Assembly: GCA_964437445.1 (NCBI GenBank)
Contig: CAYTGR010000019.1
Coordinates: 5,502-69,501 of the forward strand
Length of the DNA stretch: 64,000 nt
Direction: 5' to 3'
Source: an uncultured Anaerolineales bacterium
GTDB lineage: Bacteria; Chloroflexota; Anaerolineae; B4-G1; SLSP01
The position numbers and the translations under genes are program-made. Position 1 is the stretch's first letter. Each line of letters begins with the position of its first letter. Below, one piece after another: positions 44,183-63,281 of the stretch. Below the pieces are notes generated by a model, which was not told the DNA's origin, did not search any database, and saw nothing but the letters and a program-made list of their open reading frames with translations.

Positions 44183-44292
44183 TGGACATTTTTCTGTACT
44201 CTTTTACCTTTCACGGCCTACTGCTCTCTGCTCACTCCCTTACTGGTTTCTGTTCAAGGTTGGACATTTTTCTATACTCTTTTACCTTTCAC
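44183..44292. repeat. Two 32-bp direct repeats (TGGACATTTTTCTGTACTCTTTTACCTTTCAC and TGGACATTTTTCTATACTCTTTTACCTTTCAC) separated by a 46-bp spacer
   Basis: Read directly: 44183..44214 and 44261..44292, one mismatch. AT-rich, non-palindromic, between the TetR start and the CPBP gene end. Confidence 0.6.
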
Positions 44293-45073
44293 AGGGCGCC
44301 CTGCGAGGTAACAGCCAGTACACCAAAACCAGAGTAACCAGCAAAACAACGCCATAAATTGGCTCTCCTCCACGATCCGGTACATTCAATAAACCTTTGT
44401 CTTGCAGGAGATTCCATGCATAATGAAAACCTATCACACAACCTAAATTGCCTCGTTTGATGACCATCCCGCCCAAAACTATGCTAATCAGAAACGCATA
44501 GACAAAAGCGAACCAATAGTAGTCGGGGTTAATCAGGTGTATGGCCGTAAAGAGACTTGCAGATATTATTAACCCTACCCCTATACTCACACGGTGTCTG
44601 AGCACAGAGAGTATGTAGCCGCGAAAGAGCCCCTCTTCCGCTATGGCGACTATCAACCAAAAGAACAACAGCGCCCCCACATCAACACTTGTAGTGGCGT
44701 GCCCTATTTGATCGAGACTCATTTCTTTTGTAATGAATACCATGCCCCCTGCTACCAAACCAATGGACAAACTCCCCCATACTATCCCCAGTAACAAATC
44801 CATCCAAAACCCTTTATCCGGCCAACAGACGCCGATAAAACTTAACGGTTTGCGTTCCAGCCATAACTCCAACAGAAGGCTGATTATTATCGCCAGATGA
44901 AAAGCGTATTCCCCTATTGCTTCAACCTTAAGCAATGAAGCGAGTAGAGCAAACACTATCATCAGAATTATCACAAACACAAATACCCGCAGGATTTTCC
45001 AACCGGGACGCAATTCTTTGTTGCTGGAATAGAACAAGCTCATGGGTCTTATTTCCTCCAATTTCATGTACAT
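44282..45073 (-). CDS. CPBP-family intramembrane metalloprotease (CAAX protease / Abi family)
   Basis: EEGLFRGYIL, FTAIHL and HYAWN motifs in a polytopic membrane protein. Gene is AT-rich relative to the rest of the window. Confidence 0.75.
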   Translation of the reverse strand: MYMKLEEIRPMSLFYSSNKELRPGWKILRVFVFVIILMIVFALLASLLKVEAIGEYAFHLAIIISLLLELWLERKPLSFIGVCWPDKGFWMDLLLGIVWGSLSIGLVAGGMVFITKEMSLDQIGHATTSVDVGALLFFWLIVAIAEEGLFRGYILSVLRHRVSIGVGLIISASLFTAIHLINPDYYWFAFVYAFLISIVLGGMVIKRGNLGCVIGFHYAWNLLQDKGLLNVPDRGGEPIYGVVLLVTLVLVYWLLPRRAPCER

Positions 45074-45081
45074 AGTATAGC

Positions 45082-45216
45082 GCCCAACTGCTGGCGCTTC
45101 AGCTGCACCGCGCAGCGCAGCGGAGCGGCGTCAGGTGGAACTCCCCCTGGCTGGCTGCACCAGCCTCCCCCGGATGAACGGGCCGTTGGCCCGTTCTTAG
45201 CAAATGCTTGTTAGCC
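45082..45216. repeat. Copy A of a ~135-bp repeated structured intergenic element (copy B at 49083..49219), immediately 5' of a minus-strand start codon
   Basis: The two copies align at roughly 80% identity with an identical 48-bp core (GCGCAGCGCAGCGGAGCGGCGTCAGGTGGAACTCCCCCTGGC). Hairpins are preserved by compensatory differences. Confidence 0.6.
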
Positions 45217-45945
45217 CGCCTTTTTCAGCCAAGGAACTTGAGTGTTTGCAGCAGTATTGAACCTTTCAATGCCCCGTCTGTGTTTAATCCGAGCATAAAT
45301 GCAGTGGACTTGAAAGGAAATAACAAACATAACTATACCACCGACGATAAGATTGCTGTGAGGAACAGTATCTTGGGACAAAAATTGTACCGTAATGATC
45401 ATAAGGCCAGTAAGAGCAAATCCGTTTACTATGCCGATAAATAGTTGGTGGGTTCCAAGGGGATATATCCACCATAACCTTTTGTTGATTTTTTCAACCA
45501 AGTTTATTTTTCGTGGTGAAATTGGACTGACTTCAGCAAAAGAGTTGTCAATATAAAAAATGTATGGTTTTTCGGTCTCTCTACCCTGAAACAGACGGTA
45601 TTTCAACAAATTTAATCCAAGGGCGAAGTTGGAGAGGTCAATGTTTCTGTTAACAATAGAATCTTGAATAACAATTCCAACTAATATGGCGAATACAAGC
45701 AAGCCCGCAACGCTTGGATACGATAGCAGCAAATTGCCACTGTTCACTTGGAAAAGCACGATGATGGCCCCTGTCACCGCAGACAGTAAAGTGAGATAGA
45801 AATTGAAAATCCCATTGATCGCGTTTTCCGTATGAATATATAAGTTTGATAGAGACGCATACTCTGCCTTTAAAATATCAATCGTTTCTTCCCTCTGTCC
45901 TGATTGACTAATTGGTGAGATATTGCTCTTGGGCTTCTTGTCCAT
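45211..45945 (-). CDS. Hypothetical membrane protein (AT-rich, likely horizontally acquired)
   Basis: 244-aa ORF with four or five hydrophobic helices. Asn/Ile/Lys-rich composition, unlike the surrounding high-GC genes. Confidence 0.4.
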   Translation of the reverse strand: MDKKPKSNISPISQSGQREETIDILKAEYASLSNLYIHTENAINGIFNFYLTLLSAVTGAIIVLFQVNSGNLLLSYPSVAGLLVFAILVGIVIQDSIVNRNIDLSNFALGLNLLKYRLFQGRETEKPYIFYIDNSFAEVSPISPRKINLVEKINKRLWWIYPLGTHQLFIGIVNGFALTGLMIITVQFLSQDTVPHSNLIVGGIVMFVISFQVHCIYARIKHRRGIERFNTAANTQVPWLKKAG

Positions 45946-49082: not shown

Positions 49083-49219
49083 GCCCAACGGCCTGTGCTT
49101 CACCTGCGCCGCGCAGCGCAGCGGAGCGGCGTCAGGTGGAACTCCCCCTGGCCGGCGAGGCCAGCCTTCCAACCGGAGGAACGTGCAGGGCTACGTTCTT
49201 AGCGAACGCTTGTTATCTG
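49083..49219. repeat. Copy B of the ~135-bp repeated structured element (see 45082..45216); overlaps the last 6 codons of the res-like gene and ends 33 bp upstream of the beta-helix gene start
   Basis: Direct alignment with copy A. Confidence 0.6.
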
Positions 49220-52200
49220 CCCGAACAGGATCCTCATGGAATCGTAATCCGCCCCACGTTCAAGGAAAAGAATGTGTTTTTCCGCAAACCTGACGCGATC
49301 CCACGTTCCATCATCATAGCGCTGATAGAGGTCATCATATGGTGTCGCGGAGATAATAAAGGCGTCCAGAAAAACATTGGTCCTTTCGCTTCGTTTTCCG
49401 ATTTCTCTTGCCAGTTCCGGTAGCCGCTCGTGCAGACGCGCTTTCTCATCATGGATGTAGGCTTTGGCGTGTATCATTCCATGGGGCTCAATGAACACAA
49501 TGCGCTGAGCGCCGCTATTCTGGTCAACGACCCATAGGATGAAGTCGGGATAGAAGCCGCGCTCCTCGAAGAAGCCTATTCCATAGCCGCGGCTTAAGTT
49601 ACGCAGCAGGAATACTTCCTTGCCCGCCAGCGACTTGTCTTTCTCGGCATTCCAATACTCGCGCAGGTCGCGCACGAAGCGCGCCTCGCTCTCCTTTAGC
49701 CCCGGCGGGACGATTTGCGCTTTTTCCGGCATGTCCACCAGGAGCGGCTGGTAGAGGTGGCGGTCGAAATGAATGCGCGGCAGACCGGCGTTCTCTTGTT
49801 CACAAAGGCGCTGTTGCTCCTTGAGCAAGGCTTGTACGGCCTCCACCAAATGCTCTTCTGAACGCGGGACTCGGACTACGTAGCCTGCTTTTTCTTCGCT
49901 CACCCCCTGCGGCCTGAAGTCCAGGTTGGGATCGCTGGCATCCAGCGGCCGATAGACCATGGTTTGCTCATCCCATTGTTCGCGGCGCGTCTGATAGAAG
50001 CGGTCCAGATACCGGCAAAGGAGTTGCGTCACCGCCTGCTGGAGCAGGACGCGGTCGGCAAAGGATTGCGGCGCGAACACACGCTCATCGGCGATCAGTG
50101 TGCAGAGGGGAATATCCCTGTCATTTTTCAGGCCGATGATCTGGCGCGGTGTTTCCGGTTGAATGACCAGGTTGGTCAGCCCTTTGTGCGTCTTATACGC
50201 CAGCAAGTCGAGATAGGCCTGCTGCCAATCCACCCAGGCCAGGCTTTCGGGGGGCAGAGGGCGCGCCCGGCCGCTGCGCACCTCGACGGCGTGCAGGCCC
50301 AGCCTGGTGCTTTCCATGGCCTGCACCCTGACCGAGAGATCCACCTGCACGGAGATGGAAGCGTCCGGTTCGAGGAGCAGGCTGGCCTCGCGGGCGAAAT
50401 CGCGGCCCTCCGGCGGGCGCGGCACGACCAGCCCGCGTTGGAGAAATTGCTCGTTGGCCCAGACGAACAGCGGCAGTTCGATGGCCGGTTCGACCTCCAC
50501 GCCTTCGCGTTCCAGGTAGTCGCGGAATTGCGCCATGTAGTTGGCGCGCACGGCGAAAATGTTGAGCGTCTCCAGCAGACGGATGTGTTTGGGATGCGTC
50601 CCATCCAGCGCCGCACTGCGTTTGAGGCTCATCCCCTTGCCCTTGAGGCGCACGCCGCGCCCGAGAAGTTGGATGATCTGCGAGCCTTCCTGCCGCCCGA
50701 TGTTCAAGAGGCCCATGCTGGCCACGCGCCAGGAGTTCCAGCCTTCCATGAATTTCTTGGCGCCGATGAGCACATGGATTCCGGAGTCGGGGCGGTTGAT
50801 GCGCTCGAAGAGCGAAGCGGCAATGGCGTCGTCCTCCAGGGTGATGCCGCCGGCATCCTCCTCCACCAGTTTCTTGAAGGCGGAGGTGTCGCCGATGAAA
50901 ATCAGGCCAAAATAGTCCTCGGCGCCCGCCGCCTTGAGGCCCAGTTCGCCGGGACTGCTCTTGATGTCGGCGAGATGCAGACCGCCGCCCGCCGGAGCGT
51001 GGAAGAGGCGCGCCAGGATGGCGGCATAGAGCTGCGCCGGAGTGAGATTCTCTTCTTTCAAGAAGGGGAAACGTCCGGCGAAAATATCCGCGCCGTCGGC
51101 GGAGACCAGCCCGGTTTTCCCGTCCAGGATGGCCTTGAGCGTTTTGACTGCCCAGGCGCGGTCGCTCAGCACGCGGTGCAGGAAGCGCGCCACGGTCAGC
51201 ACGTCGCTGCGCGGCTTTTTGTTCTCGGTGTAAACGGCATTGACCGTGCTGCCGACGAACACCCAGAGCGGCTTCTCCAGGTTGTAGGGACGCAGGGCGT
51301 CATCCTGTTCTTCATAGAGCCGGATTTGCTCGTAAAACGAAAGCAGGTTGCCCAGGAGCAGGGTCTCCCCCTCACCCCAGCCCTCTCCCCTCTGGGGAGA
51401 GGGGGGCGCGTCGCGCAGGTTCAGGATGCGGAAGTCCTTGCCGAAGCCGTCGCCGTAGAAGTAGCGGTAGGAATAGTCGAAGACGATGGCCTTGCCGTAT
51501 TCGGCTGTCAGCGGGTCGTTGCGCGCCGCCGAAAGCGCCTGCCCGAAGGTGGCGCTGTACTCGAAGGTGAAGCCGGTCGCGCCCAGGGCGTCGCGGTAGC
51601 CGCGCCAGGCCTCGCCGCCGGAGCCTTTGTGACCTTCGTCCACGAAGATGAGATTGCGCCCTTCGAAGGTATCCACCGGCACGCTCATGCCGCCGCCGCG
51701 CTTTTCTTCCACCAGTTTGGTGATTTCGATGACCTGCACGGCGTCCCGCCCGCCCGTCCACAGGCCGCTCGTGTTCAGGTCGAAGCGCCGCGCCGGAATG
51801 CCCGAGGCGGCGAGTTCCTCAAGGTGCTGCTCGCTCAGGCCCTCGTTGGGCGTGATGAGCAGGATGTTGTCCAGCGGGGGACGAGTCGCCGAATCGCCCG
51901 TACCGTAGTGCAGAAACTGGTAGTAGTTCAGGTGCAGGAGCAGGGTCTTGCCGCTGCCGGTGGCCATCCAGAAGGCCAGTTTGGTCAAATCGCCCTCGGT
52001 GAAGGGTTCGTCCTGCGGTTCGCCGGGCAGACGACGGGCGTTGCGCCCGGCGACAAAGGCATTCAGGTCGGCTAACAGTTGCGCTTTGGCGTTGAACAGG
52101 CAGTCGAGGACGATTTCGGTGTAGAGCGCCGCCAGGTACTGGAAGTAGCGCAGGGTGATTTTTTCCGTGCGCCCGCGGTTGATTTGCTCCAGGTGCCGGC

Positions 52201-52453
52201 GGATGTTCTGGTCGTAGCGTTCCAGGTCGGCGGCGGGAATCTTGACCTGACTGCCGCGGGCAATGAGATGGTGGTAGAGAAAACTATGCCCGTCCGCGCC
52301 AAAGCCTTCGGCCACGCTCTTGCAGTCTTCCAGGAGGGCGCGGTTGCTCGCATAGCCCAGGAGATGGTTGAGCCAGGCCAGCAGGACAAGGCGGTTTTCG
52401 AGTGTGACGTATTGCTGGAGGCCGTTCGGCATATCACGCCTCCACCCCGGCAA
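49199..52453 (-). CDS. Type III restriction enzyme Res-like subunit: SF2 helicase/ATPase plus C-terminal nuclease-like domain, with ~185-aa N-terminal extension
   Basis: Helicase motif I FWMATGSGKT, motif II FVDEGHKG, motif III SATFG, motif VI QLLGRGVRLKG. C-terminal region carries YPDFILWVVD...IVFIEPHGMIHAK (possible degenerate PD-(D/E)xK). Overlaps the mod stop by 20 bp. Confidence 0.7.
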   Translation of the reverse strand: MPGWRRDMPNGLQQYVTLENRLVLLAWLNHLLGYASNRALLEDCKSVAEGFGADGHSFLYHHLIARGSQVKIPAADLERYDQNIRRHLEQINRGRTEKITLRYFQYLAALYTEIVLDCLFNAKAQLLADLNAFVAGRNARRLPGEPQDEPFTEGDLTKLAFWMATGSGKTLLLHLNYYQFLHYGTGDSATRPPLDNILLITPNEGLSEQHLEELAASGIPARRFDLNTSGLWTGGRDAVQVIEITKLVEEKRGGGMSVPVDTFEGRNLIFVDEGHKGSGGEAWRGYRDALGATGFTFEYSATFGQALSAARNDPLTAEYGKAIVFDYSYRYFYGDGFGKDFRILNLRDAPPSPQRGEGWGEGETLLLGNLLSFYEQIRLYEEQDDALRPYNLEKPLWVFVGSTVNAVYTENKKPRSDVLTVARFLHRVLSDRAWAVKTLKAILDGKTGLVSADGADIFAGRFPFLKEENLTPAQLYAAILARLFHAPAGGGLHLADIKSSPGELGLKAAGAEDYFGLIFIGDTSAFKKLVEEDAGGITLEDDAIAASLFERINRPDSGIHVLIGAKKFMEGWNSWRVASMGLLNIGRQEGSQIIQLLGRGVRLKGKGMSLKRSAALDGTHPKHIRLLETLNIFAVRANYMAQFRDYLEREGVEVEPAIELPLFVWANEQFLQRGLVVPRPPEGRDFAREASLLLEPDASISVQVDLSVRVQAMESTRLGLHAVEVRSGRARPLPPESLAWVDWQQAYLDLLAYKTHKGLTNLVIQPETPRQIIGLKNDRDIPLCTLIADERVFAPQSFADRVLLQQAVTQLLCRYLDRFYQTRREQWDEQTMVYRPLDASDPNLDFRPQGVSEEKAGYVVRVPRSEEHLVEAVQALLKEQQRLCEQENAGLPRIHFDRHLYQPLLVDMPEKAQIVPPGLKESEARFVRDLREYWNAEKDKSLAGKEVFLLRNLSRGYGIGFFEERGFYPDFILWVVDQNSGAQRIVFIEPHGMIHAKAYIHDEKARLHERLPELAREIGKRSERTNVFLDAFIISATPYDDLYQRYDDGTWDRVRFAEKHILFLERGADYDSMRILFGQITSVR
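51366..51407. repeat. GC-rich palindromic ~39-bp element inserted in-frame within res (CCCTCTCCCC-TCT-GGGGAGAGGG core); encodes PSPQRGEGWGEGE
   Basis: Read directly. Related copies at 52669..52707 and 54707..54747 inside mod. Confidence 0.6.
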
Positions 52454-55400
52454 ACATGCGTTCCTTGAAAAGCGGATCCAGCGACTGCGCGCCGGGGATG
52501 AGCGAATCGCCGTTCACAAAGACCTCATCCGCGCCATCGGTCAGTTTCTGTTTGGCAACAAAGTCGCGGTCGCGCTCGTAGTCTTCTTTCGTCCAGCCCT
52601 GCGTCTCGCGCCAGATAACGGCCACGGCGCGCCCGTTTCGCAGAAGGCCGCGATAGACCAGGTAGCGGCCCTCACCCCCGGCCCCTCTCCCAGCGGGAGA
52701 GGGGAGGACGCGGCGCGTCTGCACGTCCAGCCCCAGCAGGTAGTTGAAGGTTTCGGGCAAATCCACCAGGCGCTCGCGGGTTTCGCCGTCGCGGTGGAAG
52801 CGCAGTTTGTAGGCGAAGGGCGTCTGGAGTTTCTCCACGTCCAGCAGGGTTGCGCTGTGGCGGGTCTCCCACTTGAGCATGTAGTGGAGCAGGTAGTCGT
52901 CTCGGAAGAGTTCCAGCACCTTCTGGCCGCCTGCGTCATCAAAGGTCAGGTTGTTGAGCGCGTCCTCGAAGGATTCCAGGCGGATGATTTTGACAATACG
53001 CGGGCTTCGTTCGGCTTCTTCGGCTGTCGCCATGCGCTTGGGCTTGCCGTCCTTCCACTCCGGCGTGAAGGTGACTTTTTTGATGCGCGGCAGGAGTACG
53101 GTGTCGAAGTAGTGCGCCATTTCAACAAGGATGAACTTGCGCCGCCCGCCATCTTCGCGGTTGAGGTTGATGACCGCGTGGCCGGTGGTGCCGGAGCCGG
53201 CGAAGAAGTCGAGAACTTGCTCTTCACTATTGAGATTGCACACCCGAAGACAGTCGTTGACTGTGTAAATTGATTTTGGAAAGGAGAACAAGGTTGTACT
53301 TCCTAAAATATGTCCAAGCAGGTTAGTACCATAATCGGTTGCTGAATACTTGCTGTCAAGCCAAAGTGTTGGCGGCAAGGTTCCATGTCGCATGCGAGAT
53401 TTCATGTAGACTCCCAGCCTGCCAGTTCTGTCTGGCTTTGCAACCAGCTCTGATAAATTTTTCATTGCTGTTTCATGTCCCCACTTCCATGTCTTCTCAT
53501 CTCCTTTTTCATCCACCGGCCAGACAACCGTTTCTTCTGCTGATGGCTCTTGAAGAATAGTCCAGCTACGTCTTGACTCATCCCATTCTATCTGTGGAAT
53601 ACGGAGGGAACCATCTGTGCGCGCATATATCGGATAGAAAAGCTTCGGTCGTGCGAATCTATTTGCGTTGAACCCCCCGTGTTTGCGAAAATTTACCCAT
53701 TCAAATCGTCCTTTTGCATCAGATTCGTTATATCTCGCGATTTGACGCTCGGTTTTCGCAAGTTCGCCAATTGTGACTTCCTTGGAATAACCGACAAAGA
53801 GTGCATAGTCGTGAGAGACTGAGAGCCCCGTTATGGCAGACCTGCCTGCAGGGTTACTGCGAACTACTACTGTACCCAGAATTGACTCGGTGCCAAAAAG
53901 TGTCTGTAGGGCCATGTGTAGCCGACTATACTCAGAATCGTCAATGGCAATGCACCATTGTCCGTAAGCTTCCAGAACAAATGTCGAGAGAAATATACGG
54001 TCTATAAGCAAGGTAAGCCAAGAAGAATGCTTGTAATCGTTTTTGTACAAGATTTCTGATGCAGCCGTGTTATACGGCGGGTCAATGTAAATGCACTTCA
54101 CCCGCTGGCGGTACTTTTCCTGCAACAGGTTGAGCGCCTGCCAGTTTTCGGAGTGCACCAAGAGACCGTCGGTGAGTTCGTCAAGATTGTCAAACGAAGC
54201 CAGCAGGCGGTCGGTGAAGTCTTGGGGGAAATGGCGCGTGTCGAGCGGCAGGGTGGGATGGGCCTGGAGAAAATCCACGCGCTGCTGCGCGCCTTTCGGC
54301 GACTCAACGGCCAGGAGCGCCCGCCACTCCTCCCACTGCGCCTCACAGGCGGCGATCTCCGGGTAGAACGCTTCGGGGATGTTGCCGACGGTGATGACGT
54401 AGAAGGTCTCGGTAACAAACTTCTTCTTCTCCCAGAGCATCTTCTGGAAGTCTTCGATTTGCGCCAGAAAGTCAATGATAACGCTGCCAATGCGCTTGAC
54501 CAGGCGCATGAGCTGGAACCAACCCTCGGCTAATTGCTCGCCGGCGGCTTCCATCTCTTCAAGGTTGAGCGCTTCGTTCTTCAGGTAAAAGTCGAGTTCG
54601 CGGGCAAGAAAGCCGCGCAGGTCCTTGTGGATGAAAAAGTCGCTGGTGTTGCGGCGGGTGTACTGGCGCAGGTGGTATTCCAGCAGGGAAACCGCCGCGC
54701 CATTTTCTTCCCCTCTCCCTTTGGGGGAGGGGGCAGGGGTGGGGGTGCGCCGTTCGGCGGTCAGCGCGGCTATGGCTTCGGGGGCTTTGATGCGCTTGGG
54801 AATGTCGGCGACAGCTTTGGCAAGGATGGCTTCCTGCTGGTTCTTTTGACCGTAGGCGATGGTCTCCTGCGCGGTCAGCGGGCGGAACTGGAAGGGGATG
54901 GTCAATGTGCGCGACGCTTCATCCCAGGCGAGGCCGTCCAGCACGGGCAGGAAGAAGCGCTTCTCGCCCTTGATATTGCCCTGCTCCACGTCGGCCTGCC
55001 GGAGTTCGAAGCGCACGGTCACGCCGTTGGGGGCTTTGTAGGTGTAGTCGGTGAAATACTCGCCGGTCTTGACGTAGTACTGGTCGTGGTTGGCCCAGTA
55101 GAGCGTCACCTCCTCGCCGTTGTAGGGGATGGCGTAGCGTTCCTTCTTCGAGTAGCGGCGCCTGGAGATAAAGTCGCCATCCTGCCAGTAGCGGGAGAAG
55201 AAGGCGTAGAGGTGGTTGTAGATGGCGGCTTCCAGGGTCTCAGTAGAACGAGCGCCCCGGGCTTTGGCCTGCGCTTCCAGGTATTCCTTTCCCGCTCTGG
55301 TAGCGCGGTAGGTTTCGGCCAGGTTGCCGTCGGCGTCTAAGGCGTCTTCGCCCAGCGCGTCCAACACCTTCTGGCGGGCGGCCTGCAGGGCTTCCTGCGC

Positions 55401-55595
55401 CTGTCCCTGCTCGGCCAGCGCGCCGCGCCGCAATTCCTCGGAGATGGCGCGGGGCAGGTCTTCGGTAATCCACTTCTCGATCGCCTGCCGCTTGTAATTC
55501 ATGATGCGGTAGATGCCGAAGTCCAGGTCGGCGCAATCAAATTGGAAAAGGTCGCGCAAGAGGGATTGGAATTGTTCAAGAGGTCTTGTCGTCAT
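52434..55595 (-). CDS. Type III-like DNA N6-adenine (or N4-cytosine) methyltransferase Mod, beta-class (motif IV before motif I), with ~500-aa N-terminal extension of unknown function
   Basis: Motif IV IYIDPPYNT at ~residue 520 and motif I DFFAGSGTTGHAV at ~residue 790, with an AT-rich TRD between them. N-terminal 1-500 has no recognised domain (starts MTTRPLEQFQSLLRDLFQFDCADLDFGIYRIMNYKRQ). 1053 aa. Confidence 0.8.
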   Translation of the reverse strand: MTTRPLEQFQSLLRDLFQFDCADLDFGIYRIMNYKRQAIEKWITEDLPRAISEELRRGALAEQGQAQEALQAARQKVLDALGEDALDADGNLAETYRATRAGKEYLEAQAKARGARSTETLEAAIYNHLYAFFSRYWQDGDFISRRRYSKKERYAIPYNGEEVTLYWANHDQYYVKTGEYFTDYTYKAPNGVTVRFELRQADVEQGNIKGEKRFFLPVLDGLAWDEASRTLTIPFQFRPLTAQETIAYGQKNQQEAILAKAVADIPKRIKAPEAIAALTAERRTPTPAPSPKGRGEENGAAVSLLEYHLRQYTRRNTSDFFIHKDLRGFLARELDFYLKNEALNLEEMEAAGEQLAEGWFQLMRLVKRIGSVIIDFLAQIEDFQKMLWEKKKFVTETFYVITVGNIPEAFYPEIAACEAQWEEWRALLAVESPKGAQQRVDFLQAHPTLPLDTRHFPQDFTDRLLASFDNLDELTDGLLVHSENWQALNLLQEKYRQRVKCIYIDPPYNTAASEILYKNDYKHSSWLTLLIDRIFLSTFVLEAYGQWCIAIDDSEYSRLHMALQTLFGTESILGTVVVRSNPAGRSAITGLSVSHDYALFVGYSKEVTIGELAKTERQIARYNESDAKGRFEWVNFRKHGGFNANRFARPKLFYPIYARTDGSLRIPQIEWDESRRSWTILQEPSAEETVVWPVDEKGDEKTWKWGHETAMKNLSELVAKPDRTGRLGVYMKSRMRHGTLPPTLWLDSKYSATDYGTNLLGHILGSTTLFSFPKSIYTVNDCLRVCNLNSEEQVLDFFAGSGTTGHAVINLNREDGGRRKFILVEMAHYFDTVLLPRIKKVTFTPEWKDGKPKRMATAEEAERSPRIVKIIRLESFEDALNNLTFDDAGGQKVLELFRDDYLLHYMLKWETRHSATLLDVEKLQTPFAYKLRFHRDGETRERLVDLPETFNYLLGLDVQTRRVLPSPAGRGAGGEGRYLVYRGLLRNGRAVAVIWRETQGWTKEDYERDRDFVAKQKLTDGADEVFVNGDSLIPGAQSLDPLFKERMFAGVEA
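52669..52707. repeat. GC-rich palindromic element copy 2 (CCCCTCTCCC-AGC-GGGAGAGGGG) in-frame within mod; encodes PSPAGRGAGGEGR
   Basis: Read directly; same orientation and flanks (CCCTCACCCC) as the copy in res. Confidence 0.6.
54707..54747. repeat. GC-rich palindromic element copy 3 (inverted orientation) in-frame within mod; encodes PSPKGRGEENG
   Basis: CCCCTCTCCC-TTTG-GGGGAGGGGGCAGGGGTGGGGG aligns with the reverse complement of copy 1. Confidence 0.55.
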
Positions 55596-55774
55596 CTATA
55601 TCCTCGTTGAAGAAGAACAAACGTCGGGTAATCATGCACCAGAATTCCCGGAATGGACAGACCTCCATCCCGGGTAAACACCAGTTCTTGCTGATAGGCA
55701 TAGAGCGGGTCAATCCCGATCACTTTTTCGGCCCTTCGGGGTAGAGCGTGTCCTGTGCCCGGTCCGTTCCACAT
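55592..55774 (-). CDS. Small hypothetical protein (~60 aa) translationally coupled to mod
   Basis: Its stop TGA overlaps the mod ATG (ATGA). Sequence MWNGPGTGHALPRRAEKVIGIDPLYAYQQELVFTRDGGLSIPGILVHDYPTFVLLQRGYR. No clear RBS, and the track ORF extends to 55909, overlapping the upstream gene. Confidence 0.3.
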   Translation of the reverse strand: MWNGPGTGHALPRRAEKVIGIDPLYAYQQELVFTRDGGLSIPGILVHDYPTFVLLQRGYR

Positions 55775-55799
55775 AGCATACTTGAAGAAACAACCGTTG

Positions 55800-56768
55800 T
55801 CAACCCAACGTCCTTCTGCGTGCCCCAGCCCTTCTGAACCATCCCCGTTTTTTCGATTTTGGCCCGCTCTGCAACAGTTCTGCCAGGGTGATTTCGCCCG
55901 TCCGGACACGGTGGATCTCCTGCAAGGTGTAGCCCTCCATCAGCAGCTCACGCACATCGTAACCGATCTCCGCGCTGACCGTACCGATGTTGCCGACCGC
56001 CTGGCCGCCCTGCGGCTCTGCGCGCCTGGATGGATCCTCCAGCACAGCCTCGGCGGGCGTCCCTGCAATGGCTTCGCGCAGAAGCGCCTGGAAGACCGGG
56101 AAATTGGCAATGCGGCTATGCATGACCAGTTTCCATGGCGTGCGCTGGCCTTTCTTGTGGATGAGCAGGTCGCCGGTCTGCGTGAAGCGCATCTTCTCCA
56201 CCTCCGCCCAGGTCAGCGTCTCGCCCGCAGAAACCAACCCGCTCCCGTTGACGCCAATCTGTTTTCCAAAGGGAACCGTCGCGCCCGACTTGAGCGCTGA
56301 TTGCGCCGCCGGGAGCAGTAAATTACCCGTTTCTTTCAGCACTACGTGTCCAAGGTTGAAAATCTTTTCATAAGCCATATTCAGTTTAATGCGCCGCCCA
56401 TCCCGGGTGTGGACGGTGTATACCCACTGGATGGGACGCCACCCCAGCCTGATCCGGCGCATATCGTAGCCAATAAACTCATACATTTCGGCCACTTCGT
56501 CCCAGCGGAAAGAGAACCGGCGTCCCAGCCAATCCATGCCGACCACTCCTTTATCGTAAACTTCCACCCTGGCGCGCATCTGGGCGCGGTAACCCCACAA
56601 CAATCCTGCGGCGATGAGCAGCATGGCGATGCCCCCGACCGGGATGGGGGCCATCAGAATCAGGCCAACAATGATGAAAACTGGCATTACATAGAGAATC
56701 ACCCGCGCGTTCGCCTTGTTTGGTCCGAAAGTGGCGCGTAAAGAACCTAACTCGATGTCTGGCAACAT
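55800..56768 (-). CDS. Membrane protein with two N-terminal TM helices and tandem bacterial PH (bPH_2/YdbT-like) domains
   Basis: VMPVFIIVGLILMAPIPVGGIAMLLIAAGLLWGY (2 TM), then two PH-like blocks (RFSFRWDEVAEMYEFIG... and GETLTWAEVEKMRFTQTGDLLIHKKG). Family assignment is from pattern memory. Confidence 0.45.
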   Translation of the reverse strand: MLPDIELGSLRATFGPNKANARVILYVMPVFIIVGLILMAPIPVGGIAMLLIAAGLLWGYRAQMRARVEVYDKGVVGMDWLGRRFSFRWDEVAEMYEFIGYDMRRIRLGWRPIQWVYTVHTRDGRRIKLNMAYEKIFNLGHVVLKETGNLLLPAAQSALKSGATVPFGKQIGVNGSGLVSAGETLTWAEVEKMRFTQTGDLLIHKKGQRTPWKLVMHSRIANFPVFQALLREAIAGTPAEAVLEDPSRRAEPQGGQAVGNIGTVSAEIGYDVRELLMEGYTLQEIHRVRTGEITLAELLQSGPKSKKRGWFRRAGARRRTLG

Positions 56769-56802
56769 AGGCCCTCCAATTTGCGAATTTTATGGCAGAT
56801 TA

Positions 56803-56832
56803 TCAGGCGTCCGCAGTCCCCTTGCAATGCAG
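56803..56832. other. Strong hairpin (GCAGTCCCCT / AGGGGACTGC 10-bp stem) between the zinc-ribbon gene and the bPH gene
   Basis: Perfect inverted repeat read directly; no clear U-tract on either strand. Confidence 0.4.
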
Positions 56833-56878
56833 GGGACTGCTTCACCAAAGGCTTCGCAGTGACAGATGAATATGTCGG

Positions 56879-57106
56879 TCAGGCTTTATCGTCGGGGAGA
56901 GTATCGTCTGAGTCTTGCGGGTGAGCGTCGGTAGCCTTATCCGGTGCGGAGCCTTGCTGGGCAGCCTGCTTTGCCGCTTCGACAAACGGATTGGGATGCT
57001 TGTTCTTATCTTCTACACGAAACCCACAAACGTTGCACCACATGGGGCCGAAAGGCATGCGGTATTGATTGATTTGCGTACTCCCACACTTGGGACACCT
57101 TAACAT
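56879..57106 (-). CDS. Small zinc-ribbon protein
   Basis: MLRCPKCGSTQINQYRMPFGPMWCNVCGFRVEDK has CxxC...CxxC. AAAGGAG lies 6 nt upstream of the ATG at 57106. Confidence 0.45.
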   Translation of the reverse strand: MLRCPKCGSTQINQYRMPFGPMWCNVCGFRVEDKNKHPNPFVEAAKQAAQQGSAPDKATDAHPQDSDDTLPDDKA

Positions 57107-57196: not shown

Positions 57197-59089
57197 TTAT
57201 TCTCCTTCGATGAAATTCCAAAGTGCCGGCTCTTCTTGACGAGAGTCTTGCGCGATGATCCAGATTTGTCCTGCGGAGTCCGCAGTTGCGGCCTCTATGT
57301 CCATATCCGTAACGGAAAGCAATTCGTTGCCTTCCAGACGGTAGACCGAACCGCTTTGGAAGAGCCACAGCCTGCCTGCGCCATCGAATACAAGGTTTGG
57401 AGAGGCGTCTGTAAACGCAAGCGTTTGTTCAGTGCCAAGAATTTCCTGCCAGGCGCCATCTTGCAAATGATAAAGGCCGCGCGCCGCGTCGCAACTGGCG
57501 CCGCCGCATAGGGCGGAAAGCGCCCACAGGTCTCCGTCAGGGCCGGGCAGCATAGCCAGCGGGTAACCCTGGCGATATTCTCCCGAATTGGGAATCACAA
57601 AATCGTTGAATTGCCGGGTTCCCTGGTCGAATTGCCGCACGAGGCCGTTCGCCATGCCGAGCCACACGTTCCCATTCTGGTCGGATGTAATTGCAGTGAC
57701 GCAGCCCGTGCTTGTCATCCCGCCGCGCCAGTGGCCCTGCCCGGCGGCAAAATCGGACGTATCCAGCCAACGCGCCCCGCCCCCGCCCATTGGCCCTTCC
57801 GCCCAGTCGCATTCGCCCACCCAGATTTGCTGGCGCTCTTCGACAAAATGAATGTGGAGTTCCATCAGCAAGTCGTTGGTCAAGGCAGGCGGCATGTCCA
57901 GGGTATCGCGCGTAAAAATCGTCCAGCGTCCATCGGCGTAGACGCGGATATCCTGCCCGGTAGCCAGCCACACCTGGCCGTGCGCCTCGCTGAGAACGCC
58001 GCGGCCTTCCAGCGAAGCCGGGTTGGAGGGCGGCAGCCAGCCTGCATCGGCATGAACAAAGGCAGAGCCGCCATAATCGGCCAGGGCGCTGTCCCAATAG
58101 AAAATTGTAGTGGGCACTTCTTCCGGGTAGAACCACGACCTGCCGGCATCGTCCACCCCGATGAAGCGTTGGGACGGCGCCAGAAAGTATGATTGCCAGG
58201 CGCCCTCCTGGAAGACGGCGTAGCCATTGGTGGTCATCAGGCGCAGGGCGCCATTCGGTAGCGCCTCCAGGTGGGTGATTTCACCGCTCAAATCTGCGGG
58301 CAATGCGGCAACTTTGTGAAAGGCAACCGCTGCTTCGCTGCCAGACGCCAGCGGATAGACCAGTGTCCATTTTTCATAGTCCAATGGATTGCCTGCTGTT
58401 TGCTCGCAATCCCGGTAACGCGCCTCATCCAGCACAAAGCGTTCGCCTGCGAGATGGTATTTGTAGAACACGCCGCAATCTTTGAGACCGCGATAGGCGT
58501 TCAGGTTGGTCAATGTTTGCGTCTCAGGATGGTAAACAGGGAAGGCGCCGGTGAGCGTATCCACTTCTTGCAGGCCACGCGCCGGGTCATCCTCCTGAAG
58601 CAGCACCGGCACGTAGATGGGACGTGCAGACGGCGGCGTAGCGCGATAGTCCAGCCAGTAGAGGCGCTCTTCCACCCAGTAGGGGCCGAGGTTGCAGGTC
58701 ACGAAGGCCAGGTACTGCCCGTCGGCGGCCGGATAAAGTTCAATGCCGCCCGCCTCCCCAGGGTCCCGCTTGAACCGCCCGAATCCTTCTTCGCAGTCCT
58801 CGGGCCAGCCCAAAAACGCTTGCCAGGCGGGGCGTTCATCGTAGCGGATGAATTGCGTTTGTGGGTCAAGGGTCGCTGTAGCCGTCGGCGCGGCAGGGCT
58901 ATGCCTTGCAATGGCCGGGGTGGCCGTCGGCGCGGCAGGGCTATGCTTTGCAATGGCCGGGGTAACCGTCGCAATCGCTGACGTCCCAGAGGGCAAAGGG
59001 GTCGCCTGCGAGTTTGTGCAGGCTGCCGTCAGCAAAATTGCCAACAGCAGAACAATCCCACCCACCCAATGATTATTCCACTTGCTCAT
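57197..59089 (-). CDS. Lipoprotein with two-component-regulator-propeller-like beta-propeller repeats; N-terminal 14-aa tandem duplication
   Basis: Signal peptide and lipobox (VLLLAILLTAAC) with AGGAGG 6 nt upstream of the ATG at 59089. Repeats such as NGNVWLGMANGLV and DGDLWALS. A 42-bp tandem repeat at 58882..58965 encodes PAIAKHSPAAPTAT twice. Confidence 0.55.
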   Translation of the reverse strand: MSKWNNHWVGGIVLLLAILLTAACTNSQATPLPSGTSAIATVTPAIAKHSPAAPTATPAIARHSPAAPTATATLDPQTQFIRYDERPAWQAFLGWPEDCEEGFGRFKRDPGEAGGIELYPAADGQYLAFVTCNLGPYWVEERLYWLDYRATPPSARPIYVPVLLQEDDPARGLQEVDTLTGAFPVYHPETQTLTNLNAYRGLKDCGVFYKYHLAGERFVLDEARYRDCEQTAGNPLDYEKWTLVYPLASGSEAAVAFHKVAALPADLSGEITHLEALPNGALRLMTTNGYAVFQEGAWQSYFLAPSQRFIGVDDAGRSWFYPEEVPTTIFYWDSALADYGGSAFVHADAGWLPPSNPASLEGRGVLSEAHGQVWLATGQDIRVYADGRWTIFTRDTLDMPPALTNDLLMELHIHFVEERQQIWVGECDWAEGPMGGGGARWLDTSDFAAGQGHWRGGMTSTGCVTAITSDQNGNVWLGMANGLVRQFDQGTRQFNDFVIPNSGEYRQGYPLAMLPGPDGDLWALSALCGGASCDAARGLYHLQDGAWQEILGTEQTLAFTDASPNLVFDGAGRLWLFQSGSVYRLEGNELLSVTDMDIEAATADSAGQIWIIAQDSRQEEPALWNFIEGE

Positions 59090-59122
59090 TGCGGCCTCCT
59101 GGTTGCGAACTGCCATTCCTGG

Positions 59123-59410
59123 CTATCCCAAGGAACGTTTTAGCCTGGTCATCAGAAACACGCTCGACACAATGCCCAGGACAATCAGCGTCAGGACGAC
59201 AACGCCCGTGTACCATTCCCAACGGTAGGAAACGCCCACCAGTCCCAGCCGCCAGGTCATTCCCACGAGCGATACGAACGTCAGTCTGTAGACTGGATGG
59301 GGAACGACAGGCGCTACGCGGATGGGGATGAGCGGCAAGCATCCAAGCCCAGCGCAGACAAAGAGCAGGGTCAGAAGATAGCGGAAAATAGTGCGCCAGT
59401 TGCTTTTCAT
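59123..59410 (-). CDS. Small hypothetical membrane protein (3 TM)
   Basis: 95-aa hydrophobic ORF. Its start overlaps the stop of the upstream small gene (ATGA). Confidence 0.3.
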   Translation of the reverse strand: MKSNWRTIFRYLLTLLFVCAGLGCLPLIPIRVAPVVPHPVYRLTFVSLVGMTWRLGLVGVSYRWEWYTGVVVLTLIVLGIVSSVFLMTRLKRSLG

Positions 59411-59721
59411 TCCTGGCGTTTCCTTTCCCCTGATAGTTTGGTCAGCGTATCCAGGCTTTGCTTTTGCTCTGCCATTCTGGAAATGGCCTCGAGGAGCCCG
59501 TTTTTGAATCCTTCATCCTGTATCCCTCTCTTTGTCAGTTGTTGCGACACATGTTCCTGGCGTGCCTCTTCGTTCAACTGCCAGAGTTCTTCCAGGCATT
59601 CGTCGCAGATTTGCTCCACGAAGAAAATGGCATCGGCCGTCAGGCGAGAGAAATGCCGTCCACAAAGGAGGCAGTCAAATTCCCTGTTTGCCATACAGAT
59701 GCCCAGGCTAAGACCGGTCAT
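59407..59721 (-). CDS. Small hypothetical protein with CxxC...CxxC zinc-ribbon-like motif
   Basis: FDCLLCGRHF...ICDECLEEL. Confidence 0.3.
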   Translation of the reverse strand: MTGLSLGICMANREFDCLLCGRHFSRLTADAIFFVEQICDECLEELWQLNEEARQEHVSQQLTKRGIQDEGFKNGLLEAISRMAEQKQSLDTLTKLSGERKRQE

Positions 59722-59863
59722 GACTCAACTCCTTTGAATGGAAATCCTGCAAGAAATCAAGGTTCGACATACTTTCCAACCAACTCGGTGAGATCGTGCA
59801 GCGTCAAAATGAACTTCTCGTAATCCGGGACGACTGTCACGCGCCGTCCTAACGATCTGCTGC

Positions 59864-60157
59864 TCAGCCGCAGCCGCGAAGCGGCTGTCGGCTGCAGCGG
59901 CGGGTTAGGCGCAGGTTTATCCCACCAGATACACCGCCTACCCTGGTCTGCACTGCGATGCGCTGGCCGTTCAAACTGTAGTACGTCCTGTTGACTTGCT
60001 GTGTGTCGGCGATGAAGGTATCCACCGCGCCGCCGTACACCGTCCTCCCGCCGCCGGGCAGGAGTTGCAGCACGCGGTCTCCGTCGCTGTCATACCAGAA
60101 CCGCGTTACTGCTCTGGTCACAGTATCCGTCACCACGGCTGGCGGTTTTTGGCGCAA
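59864..60157 (-). pseudogene. Rhs/YD-repeat fragment (orphan remnant)
   Basis: RFWYDSDGDRV and TYYSLNGQRIAV are YD-repeat-like motifs. No N-terminal region and no RHS core end. Confidence 0.45.
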
Positions 60158-60190
60158 TACACCCTTACGGAATGAACACGAAGGTCTATT

Positions 60191-60589
60191 TCAGTGCTTC
60201 AGTCTTGCCTCAAGGTCACGAATAACTCCGTACCATTCTGCCGCGTTTTCTGATTCATCCCAGAGTTCCTTGAGTTCTGAGGCGGTTTTGACTCGTTTGA
60301 CTGCTCTCGATGCCAGTCCAGACAGGCTCTGATCTCCAACCGGATGCCGGCTGATCCACTGCTTTACCTTGTCCGGCAAGTCGGGGCTACCAACACCGTT
60401 AAGCGCCGCAACGAGTTCCGCCGCTGCCAAAGCCCGACACGCCTCAGGGGCTTCCACATACTCATCCCTGCCCTCGGCAACAAACCTGAGTACCTCTTCA
60501 ATGACGGATGCATCTTCGGATTGCTCCAATTCCGCGACCCAATCCATAGCGTCATCATTTTCAAAGTTTCTTACACCCCATGTACCCAT
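60191..60589 (-). CDS. DUF4259-family protein, candidate immunity protein
   Basis: N-terminus MGTWGVRNFENDDAMDW matches the DUF4259 signature (MGTWG..FEND.A.D). Located inside the Rhs cassette array. Confidence 0.55.
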   Translation of the reverse strand: MGTWGVRNFENDDAMDWVAELEQSEDASVIEEVLRFVAEGRDEYVEAPEACRALAAAELVAALNGVGSPDLPDKVKQWISRHPVGDQSLSGLASRAVKRVKTASELKELWDESENAAEWYGVIRDLEARLKH

Positions 60590-60736
60590 TGTGTGTCTTC
60601 TCCTTCAACCTCGCCATACCCTGGCGGGTCGTGAATAGCACCTTCGTTCCGCAGAAACACCTGACCTATCTGGCACTTGGGCTAAGCCGGGCGAACGGCT
60701 ACATGTAGATGTAAGCGAGTGCTTGCTGCTAACAAG

Positions 60737-60937
60737 CTACCTCTCGCACAAGAGCTTGGTTAAGACAATTTCAACCGCTTCGTATCCATAGGTGCCATCA
60801 TCTGGAAGGTCCACAAGGTCCTCCGCGTTACAACGAGTCCGTTTAGGTAACTCCCATCCATTAGTATCTTGACGATACTCTACTAACCACCCCTTATTAG
60901 GGTTTAGTGGGTCTATATAAGTGTACTTCCATTTCAC
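60737..60937 (-). CDS. Small hypothetical protein in AT-rich segment
   Basis: 66-aa ORF only; no recognisable motif. Confidence 0.2.
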   Translation of the reverse strand: MKWKYTYIDPLNPNKGWLVEYRQDTNGWELPKRTRCNAEDLVDLPDDGTYGYEAVEIVLTKLLCER

Positions 60938-61000
60938 TCATAAATCAACTCTTTGCATTCACTTACTCTTTGGGAAATGCTACCCTGGTACCGGATAAGA

Positions 61001-61438
61001 TCATGGCTGCAGACAATCATAGTAATAAGGGGGAATGGAGTCGGTACATTGCCATTCTGTTGTGCTGCTGCTGTAACCGCACCACGTGTCATTGGATCCG
61101 GCTAGTCGAAAGTATAGAATATATCCTCCCCCCCCTGAACAAGCAGTATAGGTATATGGATACCTTCGCGCCGGCCGGGGTATCGCCTCCAAATACTCTG
61201 GCACAAGTTCCTCAACAGTGGATGGGAATCGATCGTTGTTGTGTTCGTAACGTTGTAAAGCCATCAGGAGTTCATAGGCACGCACTTGACCTTGTTCTAA
61301 CGAGGCTGCATCTACAGCGAAAATTGTAGCATACAAATAAATACTGCCTACACATCCTAGTAGGACAACTATCACCAACACCCCGAATACTGGTCGCCAG
61401 GTGAGGTTCAAAAACATATGGCTTTTCAAGTTACTCAT
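61001..61438 (-). CDS. Candidate immunity protein (N-terminal TM anchor) for the adjacent Rhs C-terminal toxin
   Basis: Immediately downstream of the Rhs-CT gene with a 3-bp gap. One TM helix, then a Cys/Tyr-rich soluble domain. AT-rich. Confidence 0.4.
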   Translation of the reverse strand: MSNLKSHMFLNLTWRPVFGVLVIVVLLGCVGSIYLYATIFAVDAASLEQGQVRAYELLMALQRYEHNNDRFPSTVEELVPEYLEAIPRPARRYPYTYTACSGGGGYILYFRLAGSNDTWCGYSSSTTEWQCTDSIPPYYYDCLQP

Positions 61439-61441: not shown

Positions 61442-62698
61442 TCACCTCGCCCACGGTCTGGGATAATACCAGGGAACCCGCATCCCCGGCGTATCCAGCG
61501 CCCAGATTCCGGGCGTCGGATCAAGCGCGAAGCGCGCAACAGTTCCCACTTCGCTCATATTGACAATCGTGTCATGTAACATAGCGCCATGCTGAACCCC
61601 AATATAGCCTAGATTCAAATCAGGTACATTGCGATCACTCAAAGGGCCATCTCGCAGCCAATTGCCAGAACAACCCAGGTATGGGCCGTAAAAATACCCC
61701 AGGTAAAAAAGCCCAGCATAATGGTGGCTTGGGTTTTCATCGTCAACAAGAGCCGGATCCCAACCTGCCGTTCCCTCAAACAGAGGAGTATTTGCAGTCC
61801 ATGCGGTTCCAGGGTTGGTTGCCATCTGCCAAGTCGCCGGAATAGCATGACCTAATGGGACACCTCCCCAAATAAAGCCAATAGCTTGCGCGTAAAGATT
61901 CTCTTCCCCTGCTTGGTAATACGTGGCTAACCGTTCAAGGTGGGTGATAAAGCGATCTAGACCCGGTGCTGATGCATTGGGCCATTGGAAACCTGTACCA
62001 CTCCACAATTCTGCTCGATGTTGGTTGTAGAGAATCCAGTCACTATCTGTCCAGGCGCCATCTGGTCCACTGCCGGAATAAAGTATTGAGAAAAATCGAT
62101 CCCGTCGATCTTGATCTGTAGGCATACTCCCATGCGCCGCATAGAAAGCCTGCTCCCAGGCAGCATCAATGGGATCGTGTCCACTTGGATCCAGGTACTT
62201 GACAGGATTGTTATATCCGTATACGTATCCGTAGGCGTAGCGATTCAACGATTGGGGAGCAGCAGGATTGGGGACTAGGACATCCGCGCTGACAAACCGT
62301 CCTAACGACGGCGAATACATCCTCGCGCCATAGTCATACAGCCCCACGCCCTCCCACGGCTGGCCGGTGTAACGCCGATTGGTCGGCGTGCTGCCCCATT
62401 CGTAGCGCGTGACGCCATACGGGGTGTAGCGCAGTTCGCCCACCCGGTTACCGCTGGCGTCGGTCGCCACGGTCGCACTCCCCAGATGGTCGCCGTGCAG
62501 GAAGTACAGCGTGTTTCCTTGCCGCATTGCGATACGCTGCCCACCGGCGTAGTAGTATTTGGTCACCACCGCCCCTTGCTTCTCGTAGTAGTCGCCGATG
62601 TAAACCCGCACCCCGCTCCCATCCATCCGCAGGATACGGTTGCCGTCGCCGTCATACACGAAGCGCGTGACCTGCCCGGTGACCGTGTTCGTCACCAC
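61442..62698 (-). CDS. Orphan Rhs C-terminal module: a few YD repeats, RHS repeat-associated core end (DPxGL-type motif PVKYLDPSGHD), then ~240-aa variable C-terminal toxin domain
   Basis: YD repeats (RFVYDGDGNRIL, YYYAGGQRIAM), core terminus LYFLHGDHLGSATVATDASGNRVGELRYTPYGV...RYTGQPWEGVGLYDYGARMYSPSLGRFVSADVLVPNPAAPQSLNRYAYGYNNPVKYLDPSG. The C-terminal domain is unrelated to other proteins in the window. Confidence 0.8.
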   Translation of the reverse strand: MVTNTVTGQVTRFVYDGDGNRILRMDGSGVRVYIGDYYEKQGAVVTKYYYAGGQRIAMRQGNTLYFLHGDHLGSATVATDASGNRVGELRYTPYGVTRYEWGSTPTNRRYTGQPWEGVGLYDYGARMYSPSLGRFVSADVLVPNPAAPQSLNRYAYGYVYGYNNPVKYLDPSGHDPIDAAWEQAFYAAHGSMPTDQDRRDRFFSILYSGSGPDGAWTDSDWILYNQHRAELWSGTGFQWPNASAPGLDRFITHLERLATYYQAGEENLYAQAIGFIWGGVPLGHAIPATWQMATNPGTAWTANTPLFEGTAGWDPALVDDENPSHHYAGLFYLGYFYGPYLGCSGNWLRDGPLSDRNVPDLNLGYIGVQHGAMLHDTIVNMSEVGTVARFALDPTPGIWALDTPGMRVPWYYPRPWAR

Positions 62699-62910
62699 GC
62701 TAAGCCGATTTTCGGCGTTTTGTATTCTCGCGTGTAGGTGATGCGCTGCGTGCCCGAAATCTCCACCCGCAGGACCATATTCCCGTTGGCGTCATACGCC
62801 GCGCGGAAGCCCGCCGTGGTGCTCACGACGGCAAACGGCGACACGCACGCCGCCAGCGGCGGGCTCTCCGGCCCGTACCCCTTCATCACCAGCGGAAAGC
62901 CATAGCACAA
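62692..62910 (-). pseudogene. Rhs YD-repeat fragment in a different frame, contiguous with the downstream Rhs-CT module (frameshift or recombination scar)
   Basis: AAYDANGNMVLRVEISGTQRITYTREY is YD-repeat sequence. It ends 6 bp inside the next ORF in another frame. Confidence 0.45.
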
Positions 62911-62928
62911 GCGGAGTTAGTTCCCCAG

Positions 62929-63276
62929 TTACTTCAACCCCCGCCGCCGCTTCGCTTCCTCCAGCAACGCATTCGCATCCCGAACCCACTTCCTGGCATC
63001 CTCTGCCTGATCCGTCACTCCAAGACTCTCTGGCTCAGATTGAAAGGTTAGATCCAGCATTACCTCTTCCCGACTGGTCTCCTCATCGTGCACCAAACGG
63101 AATTGCAACATTTGCTCTGGCTCTATCCCAAAGTGAATCCCCGGAGGGACCATAAAAATCTTGGCACCTCCATCCTCGTGTGAGATCACAAAGGCGTATA
63201 ACGTTGTTTCCCTATCTATCCACATATAGCGCTTATGCCAGCCGAAACGGGTAATGCGCGGTTTTGTGCGTTTCAT
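62929..63276 (-). CDS. Candidate immunity protein for the upstream toxin domain
   Basis: 115-aa ORF (MKRTKPRITRFGWHKRYMWIDRETTLYAFVISHEDGGAKIF...) starting 5 bp after the stop of the toxin-CT ORF. The longer track ORF starts at 63420. Confidence 0.4.
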   Translation of the reverse strand: MKRTKPRITRFGWHKRYMWIDRETTLYAFVISHEDGGAKIFMVPPGIHFGIEPEQMLQFRLVHDEETSREEVMLDLTFQSEPESLGVTDQAEDARKWVRDANALLEEAKRRRGLK

Positions 63277-63281
63277 AGCCC

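Follow-up and report, generated by a model that had tools for sequence, protein, structure and literature searches.

Examination of a 64,000-nucleotide stretch of contig CAYTGR010000019.1 from an uncultured Anaerolineales bacterium (hereafter the window) revealed two adjacent minus-strand open reading frames (ORFs), mod (52434-55595) and res (49199-52453 as the longest ORF). An initial annotation had read them as a Type III-like restriction-modification (R-M) pair with oversized subunits, possibly part of a variant defence operon. Our analysis supports the gene positions, the mod-then-res order and the Type III-like character of the pair. The locus probably holds a self-contained two-gene Type III-like R-M system that belongs to a widespread clade of long-form systems. 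Both proteins are intact in comparison with 43-55 full-length homologues and no frameshifts were found; mod followed by res on one strand, with a gap of 1 nt, forms a two-gene unit in the window.

The genes had also been described as overlapping by 20 bp, a figure obtained when res is called as its longest ORF (1084 amino acids, aa) with a TTG start at 52453. The junction reads ...GGGGTGGAGGCG TGA T ATG CCG..., in which a GGAGG precedes an ATG at 52432 (GGAGGCG TGA T ATG) located 1 nt past the Mod stop codon. The public gene call, P0269, is 100% identical to the resulting 1077-aa Res, and homologue alignments of Res begin at the same ATG. Because of this context, the public call and the alignment starts, the overlap is most likely a longest-ORF artefact, and Res most likely starts at ATG 52432 (1077 aa) rather than at the TTG (1084 aa). 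Despite the loss of the overlap, mod and res are still tightly and translationally coupled.

Sequence matches identify Mod as a predicted beta-class N6-adenine methylase homologous to the solved Type III Mods. A phmmer search against PDB sequences aligned Mod aa 467-828 with 7dsu (Mbo45V, E 1.6e-34), 6k0w (a Mod of H. pylori type) and 4zcf (EcoP15I Mod). Pfam N6_N4_Mtase (PF01555) covers aa 499-828 of Mod only (E 7e-18). Motif IV, DPPY (aa 505-508; 54072-54083), lies ahead of the FxGxG-containing motif I, FAGSGTT (aa 798-804; 53184-53204), and this motif order, already recognised in the initial annotation, is that of the beta class. Thirteen PADLOC MTase_III models match Mod, the best of them (PDLC03646, 1057 positions, E 2e-173) over approximately the full length of the protein.

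A conservation profile of Mod was built from an alignment of 56 full-length family members, with identity measured to the window protein. Over aa 1-500 the identity is 0.57-0.83; it then drops to 0.22-0.37 across aa ~550-800, and between motif I and the C-terminus it is again 0.56-0.89. Such a drop between conserved flanks is the expected signature of the variable target-recognition domain of R-M enzymes, and specificity would differ among relatives in this hypervariable central region. By the same profile, few parts of Mod are conserved as well as the N-terminal module. A Pfam search of the conserved C-terminal region at E up to 10 returned only noise.

The N-terminal half of Mod had been said to match nothing recognisable, and searches of known families and structures agree. 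The module has no Pfam family (relaxed thresholds, 20 members) and no NCBIfam family, no PDB sequence match with an alignment profile and no structural match. As a query, aa 1-473 retrieved 1902 proteins with 60-80% identity from Chloroflexota, Thermus, Nitrospira, Bacteroidota, Deltaproteobacteria, Spirochaetes and other groups. When a profile of the module was run against 1.84 billion cluster representatives, 2957 clusters at 50% identity were retrieved, 1097 of them at E <= 1e-30; among the 150 clusters listed, the module is always N-terminal and complete proteins measure ~1000-1060 aa. The AlphaFold2 (AF2) model of the module, with a predicted local distance difference test score (pLDDT) of 74, combines a long hairpin of helices with a small beta-sheet region and a bundle of helices; its most conserved motifs (aa 21-31 and 144-179) are modelled with low confidence. 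Since PADLOC model PDLC03638 (816 positions) aligns to Mod from aa 305, the extension looks modular, its second half being common to a mid-length Type III Mod family. Conserved basic stretches (SRRRYSKKERY and RQYTRRNTSD), together with the strict co-occurrence of the module with this Res family, lead us to favour Res docking, DNA clamping or nuclease licensing as its possible role.

The linker between the module and the methylase core, at Mod aa ~433, is an insertion hot spot in relatives. Inserts in L001:11338-11819, L033:7420-8390 and L050:1560-2344 leave the gene as a single longer ORF (1207-1342 aa), and in L076:11248-13243 an insertion sequence (IS) transposase at the linker splits it. 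Some gene calls join the module to RAYT (PF01797) or DUF559-type domains (proteins P0017, P0054, P0070, P0044 and P0093). In P0118, a 503-aa homologue, the module is joined directly to the last ~35 Mod residues and the entire methylase core is gone; this protein looks like a deletion variant.

Conserved motifs show Res to be a predicted superfamily 2 (SF2) ATPase, in agreement with the motifs first listed for it. In 1077-aa numbering, motifs I, II, III and VI are TGSGKT (158), DEGH (265), SATF (293) and QLLGRGVR (588), and they are followed by YPDF (961) and EPHG (982) in the C-terminal region; all of these helicase and nuclease motifs are invariant among 28-64 homologues. Pfam ResIII matches aa 157-302 (E 7.7e-8), and a single PADLOC model matches the protein, REase_III PDLC03654 (1154 positions, E 2e-160). 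Pfam searches of the isolated N- and C-terminal parts of Res, at E up to 10, returned nothing, for which reason the putative nuclease core is assigned from motif and topology. In the AF2 model the C-terminal region (pLDDT ~80) adopts an alpha-beta-beta-beta-alpha-beta topology, with E916, D963, E982 and H984 at the positions expected of a PD-(D/E)xK nuclease.

The EcoP1I Res sequence (970 aa), taken from the phage P1 record, carries the corresponding motifs GTGKT (87), DEPH (226), GATF (253), QEVGRGLR (530), SPDF (896) and ETK (916). Comparison of these positions shows that motif order and spacing are almost equal in the two proteins: I-II spans 107 aa in the window Res vs 139 in EcoP1I, III-VI 295 vs 277, and VI-PDF 373 vs 367. 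The C-terminal strings line up as well (YSPDFAYVV...NFIIETK in EcoP1I, FYPDFILWV...IVFIEPH in the window). Like EcoP1I and EcoP15I (4zcf), the pair has the mod-then-res order, a homologous beta-class N6-adenine methylase with a central target-recognition domain, and a Res with SF2 motifs I, II (DExH), III and VI and a C-terminal PDF...E-x-(K/H) at nearly identical spacing. Unlike them, it has an invariant His in place of the nuclease Lys, sequence and profile comparisons of the Res proteins give no statistically significant similarity, and both subunits are extended. The extensions are smaller than first estimated: Mod carries ~380-470 additional N-terminal residues, not ~500 (~380 against the solved Type III Mods, with Mod aa 467 aligned to aa 89 of 7dsu), and Res ~70, not 185, when compared with EcoP1I Res, as well as ~40 additional C-terminal residues. 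Coordinates of these and other features of the locus are collected in Table 1.

Table 1. Features of the mod-res locus, with positions in the window (aa numbers of Res refer to the 1077-aa protein).
Feature	Position	Strand	Description
mod	52434..55595	-	1053 aa; predicted long-form Type III-like beta-class N6-adenine DNA methyltransferase (ORF, PADLOC, PDB matches, homologues)
Mod N-terminal module, aa 1-470	54186..55595	-	Family-specific; motifs LDFGIYRIMN (aa 24-33), SRRRYSKKERYAIPYNGEE (aa 144-162), TSDFFIHKDL (aa 317-326)
Putative Mod target-recognition region, aa ~530-790	53226..54008	-	Between motif IV and motif I; identity drop
Mod C-terminal conserved region, aa 829-1053	52437..53111	-	0.56-0.71 identity; no family
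res	49199..52432	-	1077 aa; predicted SF2 helicase-like ATPase with C-terminal nuclease-like domain; start at ATG 52432
Res N-terminal helical region, aa 1-150	51983..52432	-	Kept in homologues; predicted helical, pLDDT ~80; no Pfam
Res motif I, TGSGKT	51944-51961	-	
Res motif II, DEGH	51629-51640	-	
Res motif III, SATF	51545-51556	-	
Res motif VI, QLLGRGVR	50648-50671	-	
Putative PD-(D/E)xK-like nuclease core of Res	49343..49720	-	E916 in helix; D963 (YPDF, 49541-49552); E982-P-H984 (EPHG, 49478-49489)
GC-rich hairpin in Mod, aa 286-297	54710..54732	.	TPAPSPKGRGEE; absent from 34/34 aligned homologues
GC-rich hairpin in Mod C-terminal region, aa 965-976	52682..52704	.	PSPAGRGAGGEG; in frame
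GC-rich hairpin in Res, aa 344-356	51382..51404	.	PSPQRGEGWGEGE; in frame
Putative promoter-like site	55775..55803	-	TTGACA-17-TATGCT, ~180 nt upstream of the Mod ATG; consensus scan 10/12, pattern only

The distribution of the family places the window pair within a large group. In a scan of one genome per species, at least 562 loci encode the N-terminal module; the hosts belong to many phyla, and the family extends to plasmids of archaea as well as to clinical Klebsiella and E. coli plasmids. Eighty of these loci were fetched for comparison, and by tblastn each one that has enough sequence (~60 of the 80) carries a full-length Mod with a full-length Res behind it on the same strand. Sizes in the family range from 1014 to 1128 aa for Mod and from 1017 to 1134 aa for Res. 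The subunits, initially presented as oversized, are indeed both longer than those of EcoP1I and EcoP15I but are not unusual: by these comparisons the long form is the normal size of a large subfamily already modelled in PADLOC, since both proteins fit full-length Type III models (1057 and 1154 positions). Homologues carry the public names 'site-specific DNA-methyltransferase' and 'type III restriction endonuclease subunit R'. The long-form Type III family derived from PADLOC and REBASE (PDLC03646 and PDLC03654; E. coli pEC316_2, Klebsiella IncF plasmids) has the same two-protein architecture end to end, and the locus is an ordinary member of this Type III-like clade already present in PADLOC models and public annotation.

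In roughly half of the loci, though not in the window, mod and res are separated by cargo. The commonest cargo is a toxin-antitoxin pair of ~650 bp composed of a nucleotidyltransferase (MNT) and a HEPN/DUF86 protein; Fic/DOC, DUF262-type, OLD-like ATPase and RhuM genes also occur at this place, and L080 has a DndB-like protein with another methylase. Genes of this kind are known to sit inside R-M operons (PMC3710099), and their presence in these relatives fits an R-M system. Loci with cargo include L013, L019, L028, L036 and L047, and further L003, L007, L010, L012, L048, L051, L055, L056, L071 and L080. A repeat scan found no simple-sequence tract of the phase-variation type in mod or res, and phase variation by simple repeats was rejected on that ground.

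By analogy with EcoP1I and EcoP15I, a Mod2Res1-2 complex would protect host DNA by methylating a short asymmetric site on a single strand. Where foreign DNA is unmethylated, binding or hydrolysis of ATP by Res would allow the same complex to slide, and the C-terminal nuclease would cut, presumably with Glu-x-His in place of Glu-x-Lys. In classical Type III enzymes this ATP-dependent cleavage needs two sites in inverse orientation. To this scheme the Mod N-terminal module and the helical N-terminus of Res most likely add structure or regulation. Candidate roles are to dock Res, to provide a further clamp on DNA or to control nuclease licensing, and a separate pathway seems improbable.

Several findings weigh against an R-M system of the known Type III kind. 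No match to Res was found in the PDB by sequence or profile, and hhalign of the Res family against EcoP1I Res aligned the motif II-III segment only (probability 3%, E 0.014). EcoP1I Res matches five other PADLOC REase_III models and not PDLC03654, the two sets being non-overlapping. Homology of Res to canonical Type III Res (EcoP1I/EcoP15I), tested in these ways, was not supported by statistics, and the likeness is one of motif order and spacing; because architecture, Mod homology and gene order do agree, we use the label "Type III-like". Position 984 is a His in place of the canonical nuclease Lys, and this substitution is invariant throughout the family. Approximately 930 of the 1077 aa of Res and 690 of the 1053 aa of Mod (about two thirds) lie outside any Pfam family, and NCBIfam and PHROGs gave no matches outside the Mod methyltransferase motifs and the Res helicase core. 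The AF2 model of full Res, built from 64 sequences that are all >= 70% identical, is poor (pLDDT 64, predicted template modelling score 0.37) and leaves the helicase core unresolved, likely because the alignment is shallow; a Foldseek search of it against the PDB, with no match at E <= 0.001, was therefore uninformative. Neither an experimentally characterised member nor a paper on the long-form family was found in the searchable full-text literature. Finally, plasmid relatives associate the pair with an SNF2 gene, so that the ancestral or complete machine may exceed Mod and Res.

These distant relatives are carried by plasmids of haloarchaea, Thermotogota, Aeromonas, Klebsiella and E. coli, with 33-44% identity in the N-terminal module; over their full length the window proteins are 34-36% identical to the plasmid proteins, and PADLOC Type III models cover the enterobacterial Mod and Res end to end. 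On E. coli pEC316_2 (L083), Aeromonas pE31A (L084) and Athalassotoga pATS1 (L085), the place directly upstream of Mod-Res is taken by a small helix-turn-helix (HTH) gene and an SNF2 gene, and in PADLOC the SNF2 protein of E. coli scores as DrmD (E 2.5e-196). The E. coli HTH-SNF2-Mod-Res cassette is located near psiA, and the family is also present on 11 Klebsiella plasmid records; in Aeromonas pE31A an AAA ATPase and a DUF4276 gene additionally lie between Mod and Res. No SNF2 homologue was found in the window or in the 80 close loci; either this gene is an accessory confined to one branch, or the branch of the window has lost it.

Such cassettes raise the question of a mechanistically distinct methylase and helicase-nuclease defence that only resembles Type III. 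It would be kin to the plasmid HTH-SNF2-Mod-Res systems and DISARM-like, sensing, regulation or a second enzyme activity would fall to the N-terminal module, and the form in the window would be a reduced one of two genes. Such a reading could draw on a module that is highly conserved and has no known relatives, on a Res that stands apart from canonical Res at profile level, and on the SNF2 gene directly upstream in the E. coli/Klebsiella, Aeromonas and Athalassotoga plasmid relatives (33-41% N-terminal identity), which in E. coli is DrmD by PADLOC. We nevertheless consider it distinctly unlikely. SNF2 is missing from the window and from 80 close and otherwise intact loci, so the two-gene form appears stable alone; DrmA, DrmB and DrmC have no PADLOC match, the core of Mod is a plain homologue of Type III Mods, and the motif spacing of Res mirrors that of EcoP1I Res. 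A related and bolder proposal is that the whole clade constitutes a distinct methylase/helicase-nuclease immunity class, in which a Glu-x-His Res is controlled by the ~400-aa Mod module, a new domain with a sensor, regulatory or catalytic function, and the two-gene form is the minimal core of the plasmid cassettes. We regard this as unlikely, if somewhat less so than the reading just described.

DISARM class 1 has in common with the locus the association of a methylase with helicase-type proteins, and the SNF2 protein of the distant plasmid branch scores best as DrmD; unlike DISARM, the window has no DrmA, DrmB (DUF1998), DrmC (PLD) or SNF2, and its Mod is a Type III homologue that matches no Drm model. 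Six window proteins were compared with the Drm models in PADLOC and none matched. As DrmA, DrmB and DrmC are absent, the locus is not DISARM. The BREX-related 'BR' systems combine a DUF499 ATPase with an N6-methyltransferase and a helicase-nuclease (PMC12839542). They share the R-M-like logic of an N6-methylase with a helicase-nuclease effector; unlike them, the window lacks a DUF499/BrxC-like ATPase gene, which sets it apart from BREX-related systems, and its methylase is of another family. The long-form plasmid versions (enterobacterial, Aeromonas, Athalassotoga) differ from the window and its 80 closest relatives by the HTH and SNF2 (DrmD-like) genes upstream.

Three GC-rich hairpin elements interrupt the two genes in frame. 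Each is a perfect hairpin, CCCCTCTCCC-N3-GGGAGAGGGG, often followed by CYGGGGTGAGGG, and encodes peptides such as PSPxGRGxG. These three are all the copies in the window, as against 0 in 200 shuffles, and in the 80 related loci 12 of 12 further copies fall inside the Mod-Res span (437 kb), with none in 647 kb of flanks. The closest Res homologue, P0270 (90% identity), lacks the Res insert, and similar inserts occupy the same site in P0274, P0286 and P0302. In-frame palindromic elements of a similar pattern are known, for example, from Rickettsia, and the distribution seen here may reflect inheritance with a mobile operon or insertion hot spots. Hairpin elements were noted in L001, L013, L019, L021 and L025, where the same few sites recur.

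Three foreign elements within two genes, added to the missing canonical Lys and to the many relatives interrupted by repeats, RAYT or IS elements, could also be taken as signs of a decaying or restriction-dead locus, in which Mod would persist as an epigenetic or orphan-like methylase and Res would have been inactivated by the Lys-to-His change and the hairpins. This is quite improbable: neither ORF is shortened or frameshifted, every catalytic motif is intact, the His is invariant family-wide and not a local lesion, and the insertions sit in variable, low-confidence loops where the reading frame is kept.

The initial annotation had further placed the pair in a longer operon with a gene at 55592-57106. 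That stretch does not contain a single ORF; it holds a non-conserved ORF of 60-105 aa and, in another frame, a DUF6585 membrane protein. The 60-aa version of the ORF overlaps the Mod start by 4 bp and was rejected as a C-protein controller because it is not conserved. Other neighbours are a 639-aa DUF1176-like protein and a 1047-aa PMP-repeat protein. In tblastn searches of the 80 related loci, the 60-aa ORF, DUF6585, the 639-aa and the 1047-aa proteins had no counterparts, and clustering of all flanking ORFs of these loci found nothing in common beyond related Latescibacterota genomes. A PADLOC run on the locus, as initially suggested, returned MTase_III and REase_III models for the pair, no Drm models and nothing in the upstream genes. 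A putative promoter-like site lies between DUF6585 and Mod. Although the upstream genes share the strand of the pair and the 60-aa ORF overlaps Mod, a multi-gene defence system that includes 55592-57106 and genes beyond is close to untenable, given that these genes have no counterparts beside Mod-Res elsewhere, encode products that look membrane-bound or secreted, draw no PADLOC match and are separated from Mod by the promoter-like site. As no neighbour is conserved beside the pair, the unit is Mod and Res alone; the neighbours are unrelated genes, whereas the extensions of the two subunits map to no characterised accessory region of Type III enzymes.

The locus is therefore to be viewed as an intact stand-alone R-M system and not as a new multi-gene defence island. 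The family merits attention nonetheless: it is widespread, large parts of both proteins are unassigned to domains, and its Res has no statistical link to the studied Type III Res. Biochemical or structural work on a single member would reveal the role of the Mod N-terminal module and would show whether a Glu-x-His nuclease and an optional SNF2 partner change the Type III mechanism.

Other parts of the window carry features of their own. No tRNA gene that could serve as an integration landmark was found within the 64 kb. Upstream of the pair, 61442-63977 encodes the C-terminal region of a YD/Rhs-type polymorphic toxin (PF25023 TEN_YD-shell, public gene call), followed at 59000-61400 by small ORFs that include a DUF4259 protein; together these are probably toxin and immunity genes. 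Between 44001 and 46000 the GC content falls to 0.46, against ~0.6 elsewhere, over two genes (44282-45073 and 45211-45945) with hydrophobic-looking translations, which suggests a separate horizontal acquisition.

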